From the NCBI GenBank assembly GCA_000004985.1, contig GG738862.1: a DNA stretch of 64,000 bases. One strand, 5' to 3'. Positions 3-54,330 of this stretch are shown here, in pieces; the first letter of the stretch is position 1; each line of letters starts with the position of its first letter. The notes beneath the pieces were generated by a model, which was not told where the DNA came from, did no database searches, and worked only from the letters and a program-made list of their open reading frames with translations. This DNA comes from Naegleria gruberi. Its lineage: Eukaryota. Made by a program: the position numbers and the translations under genes.

Positions 3-1274
3 ATGTCTCAAGATGTTCTTTGTTACGCCTTCAGCTTCTTAGATTACTCCTACAATACAACACTCTCACTTGTTTGCAAGGAATGGCAGCAAATTGCTAA
101 CTCTAATTCATTGTGGGAATTTTACTTTCACCTATTGACGAATAATAAGAAGGGAAAAACAAGGGTTTTATCATCTGTGGTTTCCGAGAATGATTTATTT
201 TGGAAAAACAAGATGAGGGATAATTTCTCTCAATATGCATGTCGATTATCTAAGAAAATATCATCCGATGCTTTGTTAAAATTGGAAAAATTGAATATGA
301 AATTTCCTGATCAATTTTCATCACAGATAGTAAAGATGATTTTATCGAGAATTTTGTTGGAAAGTTTGGAATCGACTGAAAATTTTGATTTACCCTACAA
401 AAAGGAAAAAATATTACACGAATATGAACATCATGTGGGTCACTTTAAAATGAAATTTAAAATTAGTGGAATAGAAGAACCATTGATTGCTAGATTCAGC
501 AACGATGATGCATATGGATTTTTCTTATTTGGATACGATTATACAAGCGAGTATTACATGTATTTTGCAAAGGAGAGCGATGATCAATTGAATAAGAACT
601 TTATGAATGGAAGTAATATTGATTTAAGTGGAATATCTCACCAAAAACGTGCTTTTATTTACAAGTTTAATGGTAAAAATATTCCAGCTAATGTTTGGGG
701 AAAGCAATACTTGTGTGATACAATTCTATCCCATATTGTTCCAACAATTAAGGAATATGAACTTTCACCAATTGAGTTTGTTCCATATTGGTGTTTTTTA
801 TTTAACTTTATTATAGCTGGTGCTACGGATAAACCGTCTTTCAAAGAGGTTGTAAAGCACTATCCAAACTTTATATCTAATAGATTGATTCATCATTACT
901 ATGCGAAATTGTACAAGCCAAGATATACATTTTCAGATAGAATAGTCGACTACTTTGAAAGCTACTCACCAAAAACAGATATACAGAAGAAACTTATGAA
1001 AAGTATTATCAACAATAAGAATATTCCTTCACTCAATCCAAGGAACAAGCGAGAAACTTCCTTAATGCAAGAAACCATTCAATATTTGAAAAAGCAATGT
1101 CCTGTTCATTTGTTTTTCATTACTGGACGTTGGGTTATAACATCCAGTCCTGAACAAGAATTTTCTCTCAATGCACAAACAATGGCAACATTTTACAAAT
1201 TATTGAAGAATCCAGATGAGTTGACAGATGCATATCTTGCTTACAAGTTTAAAAGACCATTTCAAATTGCATAG
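3..1274 (+). CDS. F-box-like protein (N-terminal LxxxFSFLD...LVCKEWQQI motif); C-terminal half of unknown fold
   Basis: Intact 423-aa ORF. The N-terminus matches the F-box pattern seen in 6 other genes here. The ORF continues in frame after its TAG into a kinase catalytic-loop relic (see next feature). Confidence 0.5.
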   Translation: MSQDVLCYAFSFLDYSYNTTLSLVCKEWQQIANSNSLWEFYFHLLTNNKKGKTRVLSSVVSENDLFWKNKMRDNFSQYACRLSKKISSDALLKLEKLNMKFPDQFSSQIVKMILSRILLESLESTENFDLPYKKEKILHEYEHHVGHFKMKFKISGIEEPLIARFSNDDAYGFFLFGYDYTSEYYMYFAKESDDQLNKNFMNGSNIDLSGISHQKRAFIYKFNGKNIPANVWGKQYLCDTILSHIVPTIKEYELSPIEFVPYWCFLFNFIIAGATDKPSFKEVVKHYPNFISNRLIHHYYAKLYKPRYTFSDRIVDYFESYSPKTDIQKKLMKSIINNKNIPSLNPRNKRETSLMQETIQYLKKQCPVHLFFITGRWVITSSPEQEFSLNAQTMATFYKLLKNPDELTDAYLAYKFKRPFQIA

Positions 1275-1448
1275 TCACCTTACTTATTGCTATTTTTTAA
1301 TCTTAACCAACACACTACATTGATTGTAATTCATAGAGATACGAAACCAAGTAATATTTTTATCAAATCAATTTCAGATGATAACATCCAAATTGTTTTG
1401 GCAAATGTTGGTCTTGCAAAACAAAATCATGGATCTGCAATCAAATAA
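1275..1448 (+). pseudogene. Protein-kinase subdomain VIb-VII relic (..LIVIHRDTKPSNIFI...IVLANVGLAK..) in frame immediately after the TAG stop of the upstream F-box ORF
   Basis: Translation of 1275..1448 in the same frame as 3..1274 gives HRDxKPxN (catalytic loop) and a degenerate DFG (NVG) followed by LAK. No N-lobe or start codon is present. Confidence 0.4.
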
Positions 1449-1458
1449 TTAGATTCCT

Positions 1459-2403
1459 GTGTTAGAAACTAACTATATAAGTCTAATAAATTGTTTTCCT
1501 ATTATTAACAATGGAATGCAGAGTGTTCAGGAGTATTTGAATGAAATGGATAAACATGTATCCAAACTCGGTAAAGAGACTAGGGCCGATTATTTGCAGT
1601 TTAAACGAGATGTAGTCTCCATGACCACCAAATGTGAAGATGTATGTGCATCTCTGAAAGGTATATTTGATAGTCTGTTGTCGATGATTGAACGTTACGA
1701 ACAAGGGATTTTTGATGCACAGGATTGTGAAAATGCAATAGATTCACAGATGAAAAAACTCAGTGACGAATTCGCCAAGTTGGAAAACGTTAAAAAGTTA
1801 ATCGATGAATCCACACAAAAGTGTTCTAACATTTCACAGGAGTTTTATAAGTATCGAAAGGAGTTTGACAAGGCTAATGTTTGTAAATTACTTGGATCGG
1901 CAGTTGGTTTAATCTCTTCGATGGCTCTTGTTGGGGCTGGTGTTAGTGTGGTTAGTTTAGGTTTGTATATTGCTTTTAATCCGGGAGTAAACATCCCTAT
2001 CGTCTCCCAGGCATTTGGGGCCTTAACTGTTCAACACGGCATCGGCATGGTATCAGCAGGAACTACAGCTGTTGTAGCTTCAGCAACAGTTCTTGTTGCT
2101 TCTATTATAAAGATGATTGAAGGCACAAATGATCGAACAGAATTGCCATTGGTACATGAATCACAACTCAAACTGGAATCATTTTCTGAGCACCTCTGTA
2201 AATTGAAACACCAACTCTTACAGTGTTGCTCAACTTTCAAAAGCTGCAAATCCCAGTATGATCACCCTACAGCGCAGCAAGTGCTTGCTAACAAAATTGT
2301 CATAATTAGACGTTACATTCAAAAAGCAAATCCTGAATGCGAAACACTCTTTAAATTGTGTATGGAGCTAAGAATACTTGCTTGCAGGCAGCCTGAGATA
2401 TAA
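1459..2403 (+). CDS. Helical protein with central glycine-rich TM hairpin (ApoL / ClyA-like alpha-pore-forming architecture); likely start at Met 1516
   Basis: The ORF has a coiled-coil-like N- and C-terminus. The centre carries two hydrophobic Gly/Ala-rich segments (GSAVGLISSMALVGAGVSVVSLGLYIAF ... GALTVQHGIGMVSAGTTAVVASATVLVASII). Confidence 0.5.
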   Translation: MLETNYISLINCFPIINNGMQSVQEYLNEMDKHVSKLGKETRADYLQFKRDVVSMTTKCEDVCASLKGIFDSLLSMIERYEQGIFDAQDCENAIDSQMKKLSDEFAKLENVKKLIDESTQKCSNISQEFYKYRKEFDKANVCKLLGSAVGLISSMALVGAGVSVVSLGLYIAFNPGVNIPIVSQAFGALTVQHGIGMVSAGTTAVVASATVLVASIIKMIEGTNDRTELPLVHESQLKLESFSEHLCKLKHQLLQCCSTFKSCKSQYDHPTAQQVLANKIVIIRRYIQKANPECETLFKLCMELRILACRQPEI

Positions 2404-52337: not shown

Positions 52338-52410
52338 TCCCCCTTAGCTCAGTCGGTAGAGCGTCAGACTGTTAATCTGCAGGTCGGTGGTTCGAGCCCA
52401 CCAGGGGGAG
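52338..52410 (+). tRNA. tRNA-Asn (anticodon GTT)
   Basis: Acceptor TCCCCCT/AGGGGGA, D-arm GCTCAGTCGGTAGAGC, anticodon loop CTGTTAA, T-arm GGTGGTTCGAGCCCACC. Confidence 0.85.
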
Positions 52411-52518
52411 ACTTATCTTTTGTTACAGTTTTCTTGATTTTGAAGTTGGCAAGTTTATCTTTACCTTTGCACAAGTATCTTTTTTACCAATGACTCAGCA
52501 ATAGATCTTTTTAAAAAA

Positions 52519-54330
52519 ATGGCACAACACCTATCCCCTGAAGTGCTTTTTCACATTTTCACAAATTTTTCATCACCCGACCAATATTTAAATGGTTTAA
52601 TGCTCGTTTGTCGTGATTGGTACGAAGTCACCAATTATGAAATGTTCTGGTTGGCAACTCTTAAGAATTTAATGAAACAACAAATACACGATTGTAAAAA
52701 CAATGAAAATTTTGAAACCCTGATTGATACCTCTCGTACCAATATGGTTGTTAAACAATCGGATATTGTGAAGGAGAGAAAGAATTATTTATCAAGTATT
52801 GAAAAGAGAGAAAAAATTCTTGTCATTGATTTGAAACCATTCACAAAGAGGAGAGAAACCAATGATGATATTTATGGAAATTCGTATAAAACCAAGAGTG
52901 TTCAATTCATTAGGGAAAGGAGAAGGAGATTAGTGGTTTTGGAGTTGGCTCAAATTGCTTCCAAATTTGAAAATGATATTATTGACCCTCACATGTTCCA
53001 AAATGATTGGGAAAAGATTATCAATCAGATTGAGAATAGCAAGTATTATGATAAGAAGTTTATTGCAAATTTGGGAGTTTTCAATTCTTCAACAACAATT
53101 TTTCACATATTTCTCAAACAATTTCAGGTGCATTTCCATCGTGGAGGTGATTTTGATTTTTTAGATAGAGTTGTTTCATTCTTTTTATATGATTGTGAAC
53201 TTTCTGTTTCTTCATACATGGAACATATTGTAAAAACTAGTGGTTTCAATTCGTTCTTAAAAGTAAGAGAGAACAAACCAACAATATTTGAGAGATTCAA
53301 GAATGAATTTTATTTTACTGGAAAATCAGGCGTACCTGCACACTTTTTGAGTTGCGTTATTAGCAGCGCCGACCTGAAAGACGAAATGCATTTTGAATTT
53401 ATCAGAAAATGCATTGAACTTTTCAAAACTAAGAAATTGCTAAAATTCAAAGAGAATATGGTAGAGCCATACATTACTGAATATATGCAAGCAATAATTC
53501 CAAATTGGATGACAATGGAACTCTATTTGAATGATATGAACATGCTAGAGTGTAAAGGGGTCAATAGTTATCTATTTATTCATGAACTTTGCCAAAAGGC
53601 ATGGTATCTTTCACAGGAAAACAGCAATTCTATAGTTGCAGAAAACTTGAAGAGAGCCAACAAAGAATTAGGCCTCAAATTAGATATTCCTATTCCACGT
53701 TCGGTAACTAATAGATCGAACATTGAAATTCTAAAGGTTTTAGTTGAGAATGGTGCTGATATCAATTCTCCACCACCCACATTAAGTGATTCCACACAAA
53801 GTTACCACATTGGAGTCCCTCTTGCAAGAATTATTTATAATTGTTACACTTCATCGAGAACTGAAGAAATTTTATACATGATAGAGGAAGGAGCAACTCT
53901 ACCACCAATGGATACCCCAATGCCAACCCCTTTCTACGAATCATACACATATGCTGATATTTTTGATTATTATTTCGATACTGAGGAGAACAATTTTTTG
54001 CCAACTTTGAAATTACTTGTGGAAAAGTTTGGAGCTAGATTTACAGGAGCTGTTCCAGTTATTGAAAATGTGAGATACGCTAGTAACGCAATAACTTTTT
54101 CTGGATTATGTGAACTATTGCGTTATTTGAAACAAGTCACAACAATGAATAAGGAAATAATTTGCACACCTCTGACTTACATTTATTGTGATTGGGGACG
54201 ATCTATTGTAAAGGATGATTTGGATAAGAAGGAACTATTCAGAGAATTTTTGGAAAATGAAATGGATATTCACCTAGTTGAAGAAATAATTGAGGAACAC
54301 GTCGAGGTCGAGGTTACACAAGATGAATAA
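52519..54330 (+). CDS. F-box-like protein
   Basis: LSPEVLFHIFTNFSSPDQYLNGLMLVCRDWYEV motif. Rest helical. Confidence 0.6.
   Translation: MAQHLSPEVLFHIFTNFSSPDQYLNGLMLVCRDWYEVTNYEMFWLATLKNLMKQQIHDCKNNENFETLIDTSRTNMVVKQSDIVKERKNYLSSIEKREKILVIDLKPFTKRRETNDDIYGNSYKTKSVQFIRERRRRLVVLELAQIASKFENDIIDPHMFQNDWEKIINQIENSKYYDKKFIANLGVFNSSTTIFHIFLKQFQVHFHRGGDFDFLDRVVSFFLYDCELSVSSYMEHIVKTSGFNSFLKVRENKPTIFERFKNEFYFTGKSGVPAHFLSCVISSADLKDEMHFEFIRKCIELFKTKKLLKFKENMVEPYITEYMQAIIPNWMTMELYLNDMNMLECKGVNSYLFIHELCQKAWYLSQENSNSIVAENLKRANKELGLKLDIPIPRSVTNRSNIEILKVLVENGADINSPPPTLSDSTQSYHIGVPLARIIYNCYTSSRTEEILYMIEEGATLPPMDTPMPTPFYESYTYADIFDYYFDTEENNFLPTLKLLVEKFGARFTGAVPVIENVRYASNAITFSGLCELLRYLKQVTTMNKEIICTPLTYIYCDWGRSIVKDDLDKKELFREFLENEMDIHLVEEIIEEHVEVEVTQDE

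Follow-up and report, generated by a model that had tools for sequence, protein, structure and literature searches.

We analysed a 64,000-bp stretch of nuclear DNA of Naegleria gruberi NEG-M (hereafter the window), which lies on a 502,116-bp contig (GG738862.1), and concentrated on seven open reading frames (ORFs) that an initial annotation, made from the letters of the DNA alone, had taken for F-box-like genes, each with a different C-terminal module. The window has a G+C content of about 33%, and its ORFs are densely packed. An origin from a giant virus or an amoeba symbiont, considered in view of these two features, was rejected, since several ORFs match N. gruberi proteins exactly and the cytochrome P450 gene of the window is spliced. 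All seven ORFs, at positions 3, 10556, 19878 (minus strand), 32909, 40193, 47650 and 52519, were found to be present. They are listed below as p1 to p7, together with a remnant of a kinase gene that follows p1.

3..1274, plus strand: p1, a 423-aa F-box protein; F-box at residues 1-45 (nt 3-137)
1275..1448, plus strand: kinase relic of 57 codons (IHRDTKPSNIFI...VGLAK), in the frame of p1 and immediately 3' of its TAG stop
10556..12166, plus strand: p2, a 536-aa protein; F-box at residues 2-38, about six Sel1 repeats at residues ~178-411, Cys-rich tail at residues ~443-480
19878..21614, minus strand: p3, a 578-aa protein; F-box at nt ~21258-21347, then irregular repeats resembling leucine-rich repeats (LRRs)
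32909..34324, plus strand: p4, a 471-aa ORF; degenerate F-box-like segment at residues ~38-75 (nt ~33020-33133), LRRs at residues ~166-458
40193..41337, plus strand: p5; F-box at residues 14-53, then hydrophobic helices
47650..49363, plus strand: p6; F-box at residues 37-76 (nt 47758-47877)
52519..54330, plus strand: p7, a 603-aa protein; F-box at residues 4-44, then a predicted divergent ankyrin-repeat-like alpha-solenoid

F-box segments of the seven proteins

The proteins were compared with two Pfam families, F-box (PF00646) and F-box-like (PF12937), at cut-offs (gathering scores) of 24.3 bits for p1, p2 and p4-p7, and of 20.5 bits for p3. At full length, the cut-off was reached by p1 (F-box-like, 29.3 bits; F-box, 28.7 bits), p2 (F-box-like, 35.6 bits), p5 (F-box-like, 27.6 bits; F-box, 26.1 bits) and p7 (26.8 bits). 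The F-box of p3 scored 20.4 bits in the full-length protein and 24.4 bits when a 59-residue segment was scanned alone, and it passed only as this isolated segment. Two proteins stayed under the cut-off of 24.3 bits, namely p6 (F-box-like, 23.0 bits, E 6.9e-5) and p4 (F-box-like, 12.8 bits, E 0.11), but the match of p4 was in register. The p4 segment could also be aligned in register with the local F-box profile by hhalign (P 5e-4), and the F-box of p1 gave a weak in-register alignment to the F-box of SKP2. Most members of the set scored above noise in these searches.

A hidden Markov model (HMM) trained exclusively on the F-boxes of Naegleria proteins whose genes lie outside the window placed p7, p2, p6, p4, p1 and p5, in this order, as the top six among 974 six-frame segments. 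When each of the seven was searched for with an HMM trained on the other six, six of them were recovered as the best non-training segment (p6 with 19.8 bits), and p3 was missed. Neither the local nor the Naegleria-only F-box HMMs recovered p3. Outside the seven, no segment of the window exceeded 10.7 bits; an eighth F-box-like segment was not found in the window, and none of its remaining ORFs of at least 120 aa had a Pfam F-box match.

The motif by which the family had been recognised, LxxE(I/V)LxxIFxxL..(L/V)(V/C)(S/C)KxW, held up in part. Taken literally, it fits only the ORF at 10556. Its relaxed two-part form is present in four ORFs, as compared with 0.03 expected when residues are shuffled within ORFs, and the tryptophan of the [VLS][CS][KRS]xW motif, with the small and basic residues before it, is kept in all seven proteins in the alignments. 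The motif indeed heads p1, p2, p5 and p7, as proposed, but its start lies near residue 37 in the case of p4 and p6, and near residue 90 in p3 as annotated. On the basis of these sequence comparisons, we regard six of the F-boxes as secure, and that of p4 as probable and degenerate. The Pfam and profile matches support the view of the initial annotation that the seven are candidate substrate adaptors of the SCF (Skp1-Cul1-Rbx1) ubiquitin ligase, in which an F-box is combined with unrelated C-terminal modules.

C-terminal regions and gene structures

The C-terminal modules that had been assigned to the proteins proved correct in the case of the Sel1 repeats of p2, the LRRs of p4 and the hydrophobic helices of p5. 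The LRRs of p3 were detected only below threshold, the region of p7 described as helical appears to be ankyrin-like, and the one of p6, described likewise, is probably incomplete and likely to extend beyond an intron.

No recognisable domain was found in the C-terminal ~380 aa of p1, and beyond the F-box this protein had no Pfam or PDB sequence match. The exact product of the p1 ORF was absent from the protein collection. The kinase relic noticed earlier at this gene is real: a Pkinase fragment stands in the frame of p1 directly after the TAG. It spans the region from the catalytic loop to DFG, and matches profile positions 118-150 only, with a sub-cut-off E value of 3e-4. The fragment shares 43% identity, over 40 aa, with an intact kinase of the window, encoded at 43606-44646 on the minus strand. 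The relic could be a remnant of a fusion or an independent pseudogene. The possibility that the C-terminus of p1 is itself a degenerate kinase was ruled out, as the kinase similarity is confined to the 40-aa relic past the stop.

The Sel1 repeats of p2 met the Pfam cut-off with 122 bits in six stretches, and Sel1-repeat proteins and SEL1L were matched in the PDB with E values of 1e-47 to 1e-26. No significant Pfam match was found for the Cys-rich tail. A homology search with p2 returned generic Sel1 proteins only (about 30% identity), and no relative with both an F-box and Sel1 repeats was among the top 120. Among the seven genes, p2 is the one that was compared between strains, from two short ENA contigs. 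One ENA contig, k127_331782 of the 'metagenome' assembly ERZ929261, is 99.09% identical to positions 8366-16499 of the window, which indicates that the sample contains a close strain of N. gruberi. In this contig p2 is intact, as an ORF of 535 aa with the F-box-like and Sel1 regions; the change Q536* at the last codon causes the loss of one residue only. Differences between the window and the contig amounted to 22 per kb in non-coding DNA, 3.1 in p2, 2.05 in the aminopeptidase gene and 17.5 in the first exon of the cytochrome P450 gene. Since p2 diverges 7-fold less than the neighbouring non-coding DNA, it is taken to be a real gene and is constrained overall. The one synonymous and three non-synonymous differences in p2, compared with three and none in the aminopeptidase gene, hint at a weaker constraint on p2, with counts too small for a conclusion.

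The p3 protein is identical to the NCBI model XP_002678394.1, which is named 'viral resistance protein'. Pfam LRR families matched it below threshold only (E 1.3e-4 and 3.2e-4), and no PDB sequence match was found. The LRRs of p4, on the other hand, are strong (LRR_6, 85 bits; LRR_4, 82 bits), sequence matches of this protein in the PDB include FBXL17, and p4 has the layout of FBXL proteins, with the F-box followed by LRRs. In the annotated model of p4 (P0176, 383 aa, 'predicted protein'), the start is placed at a Met inside the ORF, so that the first 88 residues (32909-33172), and with them the F-box-like segment, are left out. A paralogue of p4, P0177, is encoded on a 782-kb scaffold of N. 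gruberi. P0177 and p4 can be aligned over a stretch that begins with the F-box-like segment and includes the LRRs; in P0177, the former scores 21.8 bits. A single-sequence AlphaFold2 model of p4 has helices at residues 37-48, 52-69 and 79-89, at a predicted local distance difference test (pLDDT) score below 36; with an overall pLDDT of 46, the model is too poor for the F-box to be judged from it.

In both p5 and p6, the first ORF ends where an ORF in another frame begins. In p5, the removal of a 65-nt intron (40742-40806) probably connects the ORF at 40193-40852 (219 aa) with that at 40807-41337, giving a product of 359 aa; the candidate intron reads GTGAAA...TTCAG and is in phase 0. In p6, the ORF at 47650-48201 (183 aa) probably continues in the one at 48188-49363 once a 40-nt intron (48148-48187; GTATGT...TTAG, in frame) is removed, giving 557 aa. 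The sizes of both candidate introns are near those of the P450 gene of the window, which is interrupted by three introns of 45-55 nt (GTAAGT...AG). Hydropathy revealed several hydrophobic helices in the C-terminal part of p5, and these are probably transmembrane. The C-terminus of the predicted spliced p6 is acidic, and no Pfam match was found for the C-terminal part of this protein. The product of p5, spliced or unspliced, and that of p6 in the form tried were absent from the protein collection.

The p7 protein is identical to XP_002678303.1 / D2VBY5, and is already named 'F-box domain-containing protein'. Its structure, modelled from an alignment of the family, is an all-alpha solenoid (pLDDT 79; predicted template modelling score 0.73), in which the F-box region has helices at residues 7-15, 20-30 and 34-60, at pLDDT 44-76. 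One ankyrin-like sequence motif, at residues 394-421, is in keeping with the solenoid. The Pfam ANK models were not reached (E 0.03-0.04). The best Foldseek matches of the model were the ankyrin/TPR receptors FEM1B and FEM1C of CRL2 (a cullin-RING ligase), and ASB7, ASB9 and ASB11 were also among its structural matches, none of them significant (E ~0.1). Judging by the model, the C-terminus of p7 is probably a divergent ankyrin-repeat-like solenoid. The p7 gene is bracketed by tRNA genes, with tRNA-Asn on its 5' side and tRNA-Lys on its 3' side.

An exhaustive HMMER search of 1.84 billion representatives yielded eight full-length relatives of p7, followed by generic ankyrin noise. All five relatives with a source name are from Naegleria, and two are ENA metagenome sequences other than those listed here.

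XP_002679498, N. gruberi: 52% identity to p7; 573-kb scaffold
XP_002674352, N. gruberi: 40% identity to p7; 363-kb scaffold
XP_002678115, N. gruberi: 34% identity to p7; 468-kb scaffold
P0131 (ENA sequence whose 90% cluster includes XP_002672349), N. gruberi: 30% identity to p7; 310-kb scaffold
XP_044565886, N. fowleri: 36% identity to p7
XP_044541745 (with a near-identical copy, XP_044542123), N. lovaniensis: 28% identity to p7

Neighbour joining grouped p7 with two N. gruberi paralogues in a clade that had 100% bootstrap support and contained no other species. Thus, the initial description of the genes as a lineage-specific expansion is correct for the p7 subfamily, whose full-length relatives are restricted to Naegleria. 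The positions of the matching sequences indicate that the p7 duplicates are dispersed, not tandem.

Relationship among the seven genes

The results of an all-against-all BLASTP comparison revealed similarity among the seven proteins in the F-box only, with the best match between p1 and p6 (40% over 40 aa), and no DNA-level repeats linking the seven genes were found. With no more than ~40 alignable residues, dN/dS values between the seven would not be meaningful. Moreover, the leave-one-out scores of the local F-boxes (6.7-31.5 bits) were no better than those obtained with the generic Pfam profiles (12.8-35.6 bits). In a tandem array, neighbours would be closest relatives and similar along the whole gene. 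This was not observed here, where paralogues were obtained for p7 and p4 only. The only relative found for p4 is the one on the 782-kb scaffold, and the nearest paralogues of p7 are likewise on other scaffolds. With similarity limited to the F-box and with the p7 and p4 paralogues located elsewhere, the seven genes do not represent a recent tandem array. The proposal that they are a local family built by domain shuffling finds no support either, as only the F-box of about 40 aa is common to them. Pairs of local paralogues are confined, in the window, to the RGS membrane proteins and the DUF4116 proteins. We consider it very likely that the seven are real, separate F-box genes, and that they are long-separated, independent members of the large Naegleria F-box superfamily rather than recent tandem duplicates. 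Their co-location would then reflect a high abundance of F-box genes in the N. gruberi genome, and old local duplication or regional enrichment may contribute to it. The suggestion that the window is an accessory, fast-evolving compartment finds no support: it mixes orphans with genes for actin, a Ras-family GTPase, aminopeptidase P, an EF-hand protein, P450 and four tRNAs, and p2 is constrained.

Several observations weigh against this interpretation. The comparison of paralogues covers p7 and p4 alone. The density is high, with seven F-box genes in 54 kb, among 46 ORFs of at least 120 aa (about one-sixth). For a genome of 41 Mb, which we take to be the size of that of N. gruberi, the number of seven-gene clusters expected is 1e-3 with 300 F-box genes genome-wide, 0.03 with 500, 0.6 with 800 and 7 with 1200. 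Chance would suffice only with about 800 or more F-box genes, and some local process is conceivable; no genome-wide count of N. gruberi F-box genes was found in the literature searched. As to the F-boxes themselves, the canonical LP that opens helix 1 is present only in p2 and p5, p7 has LSP instead, and p1, p3, p4 and p6 have none. The F-box of p4 is under any curated threshold, and the structure model of this protein is unusable. Additionally, p1 is followed by an in-frame kinase fragment past its stop, and p5 and p6 are full length only with inferred introns, so that some of the seven may be decaying genes.

If this last point were extended to several members, p1 with its stop and in-frame kinase fragment, and p5 and p6 with their ORFs in two frames, would be pseudogenes or genes on the way to becoming such. 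In support of that, the products of p1, p5 and p6, as tried, are missing from the protein collection, the relic continues the frame of p1 past the TAG, p5 and p6 are split between frames, and the second strain carries a nonsense change in p2. We find decay on this scale unlikely: the ORFs, at 183-423 aa, are long for a genome with 33% G+C, both frame breaks are bridged by candidate GT...AG introns of sizes near those of the P450 introns, the kinase similarity stops short of p1, and the nonsense change in p2 costs only its last residue. It is also quite unlikely, in our view, that part of the set is false positive, with the motif in p3, p4 and p6 being a generic amphipathic helix pair that does not bind Skp1. 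Such an explanation would fit the low score of p4 and its E value of 0.11, the position of p6 below the cut-off, the failure of both lineage-specific HMMs to detect p3, the lack of LP in all three proteins, and the match of the literal motif to one ORF only. However, the isolated p3 segment passes the Pfam F-box cut-off (24.4 vs. 20.5 bits), p6 has an E value of 6.9e-5 and 19.8 bits in the leave-one-out search, and p4 is fourth of 974 with the HMM trained on outside sequences alone, and aligns in register, while its paralogue has the better F-box of the two (21.8 bits). In p4 the motif immediately precedes LRRs, and in p3 LRR-like repeats, which is the arrangement of FBXL proteins; the rest of the window segments remain at or below 10.7 bits.

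The two other explanations concern the origin of the cluster. An ancestral F-box gene could have been duplicated in place repeatedly long ago, and its copies could have swapped or captured C-terminal modules until only the F-box was recognisable. The crowding of seven genes into 54 kb, which would be more than chance predicts in a genome with fewer than about 500-700 F-box genes, would suit such an old tandem array, as would the location of six of the seven genes on the plus strand, the N-terminal position of the F-box in every case, and the 40% identity of the p1 and p6 F-boxes over 40 aa. Old local paralogy is also seen in other families of the window, namely in the pair of RGS membrane proteins (28-31% identity) and in the DUF4116 pair (23%). 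Nevertheless, we regard an old array as very unlikely, given that the seven share no similarity outside the F-box, that their F-boxes are no nearer to one another than to the generic Pfam profile, and that no DNA-level repeats join the genes. Moreover, unrelated conserved genes lie between the seven, and other scaffolds hold the nearest relatives of p7 (full-length matches with 52%, 40% and 34% identity) as well as the closest one found for p4. Highly improbable, in turn, is an F-box island, in which an F-box-encoding segment was copied repeatedly over short distances and fused to downstream ORFs (Sel1, LRR, ankyrin, membrane protein and perhaps kinase). SCF adaptors would then arise in situ by local exon capture, not by whole-gene duplication, and the in-frame relic of p1 might suggest the kinase case.

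Predicted role and relation to known F-box systems

If the seven proteins function as other members of the F-box superfamily do, the N-terminal three-helix F-box of about 40 residues would dock on Skp1, and each protein would act as a substrate receptor of an SCF ubiquitin ligase, with the unrelated C-terminal module selecting the protein to be ubiquitinated. This selecting part would be the Sel1 solenoid in p2, the LRRs in p4 and probably in p3, the ankyrin-like solenoid in p7, the membrane-embedded helices in p5, and the unrecognised regions in p1 and p6. By analogy with known F-box proteins, binding to Skp1 and a role in SCF ligases are most likely for the seven.

Members of the F-box superfamily (Skp2; FBXL, FBXW and FBXO) share with the Naegleria proteins the N-terminal F-box of about 40 residues, the hydrophobic pattern of helix 1, the V-C-K-x-W of helix 3 and the variable C-terminal binding module. 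The Naegleria proteins differ from them in that LP is found in only two to three of the seven, and in that p4 and p6 are under the curated cut-offs. The layout of p4, and probably that of p3 with its sub-threshold LRRs, is the same as that of the FBXL class. While the classical partners of F-boxes are WD40 repeats and LRRs, here the F-box is also combined with Sel1 repeats, an ankyrin-like solenoid and a polytopic membrane region. The pairing of a ligase-docking box with a probable ankyrin-type solenoid in p7 has counterparts in the ankyrin receptors of cullin-RING ligases (FEM1B and FEM1C of CRL2, and ASB proteins with a SOCS box) and in Legionella AnkB (F-box and ankyrin). In FEM1 and ASB proteins docking is through a C-terminal SOCS or VHL box, in contrast to the N-terminal F-box of p7.

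Lineage-specific expansions of F-box genes in plants and nematodes consist of tandem arrays shaped by birth-and-death evolution. As in those expansions, there appear to be many F-box genes per genome, they are largely lineage-restricted (the p7 family is Naegleria-only), and species-specific duplications have occurred. In contrast to them, the paralogues that can be demonstrated here are dispersed, the seven neighbours are not mutual relatives, and FBA, FBD and Kelch modules are not found in them.

In the supplementary text of Grau-Bove et al. 2015 (PMC4327156), N. gruberi is listed among the taxa with a diversification of F-box and BTB proteins. That survey deals with the same organism and family; it is proteome-wide, and its passages on this diversification do not mention gene positions or the co-location. 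As a survey of proteomes, it could not have seen the F-box-like segment of p4, which is omitted from the annotated model.

Thus, the F-box family and its richness in N. gruberi are already known, and one of the seven, p7, was already annotated as an F-box protein. The seven genes are a dense but ordinary sample of this family, and what is new are annotation details and a few uncommon architectures. Several N. gruberi F-box genes are mis- or under-annotated: the F-box-like N-terminus is missing from the model of p4, p3 goes under the name 'viral resistance protein', and the products of p1, p2, p5 and p6, in the forms tried, are not in the protein collection. Because these four are missing, F-box counts based on proteomes may be underestimates. 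The combinations of an F-box with Sel1 repeats, with a divergent ankyrin solenoid and with a polytopic membrane region are uncommon. They might be a sign that ubiquitination has lineage-specific targets in this amoeba, a host of Legionella; the effectors of Legionella make use of these domains, too. If the clustering of the seven genes were non-random, it would inform how adaptor repertoires grow in protists.

Other genes of the window

Among the ORFs between and around the seven, that at 8947-10407 belongs to the same 90%-identity cluster as XP_002678290.1, and that at 34761-36896 is identical to XP_002678300.1. In addition to the P450 gene, the window contains genes for actin, a small Ras-family GTPase, aminopeptidase P, a flavodoxin-like reductase, an EF-hand protein and a protein kinase. 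The remaining features that could be delimited are as follows.

14509-14582, plus strand: tRNA-Thr (AGT)
27007-27079, plus strand: tRNA-Gln (TTG)
52337-52412, plus strand: tRNA-Asn (GTT), ending ~107 bp before the start codon of p7
54853-54925, plus strand: tRNA-Lys (CTT), ~520 bp downstream of the p7 stop
27411-29209, 34761-36899 and 60835-63141, plus strand: three multi-pass membrane proteins with a C-terminal RGS domain
41376-42953 and 56984-58840, minus strand: two DUF4116-repeat proteins, with 6 and 13 repeat stretches, respectively
13006-14436 (plus strand), 24575-25420 (minus strand) and 37300-38436 (minus strand): three very basic, K/R/A-rich low-complexity proteins without a Pfam match
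55303-55872, plus strand: Cys-rich ORF of 189 aa with many CxxC pairs, just downstream of p7, without a Pfam match even at E 10

The RGS membrane proteins encoded at 34761-36899 and 60835-63141 are paralogues (28-31% identity). The genes at 27411-29209 and 60835-63141 each appear to be divided between two ORFs, probably by an intron. The two DUF4116 proteins are 23% identical to each other, and a kinase, DUF4116 and LRRs occur together in P0216, an N. gruberi protein encoded elsewhere. The ORF of the basic protein at 37300-38436 contains imperfect tandem repeats of 40-75 nt with AAPKRK-type units; a long Ser/Leu/Trp-rich ORF antisense to it (37396-37926) is probably an artefact of the repeat. 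The Cys-rich ORF downstream of p7 may encode a novel zinc-binding protein.

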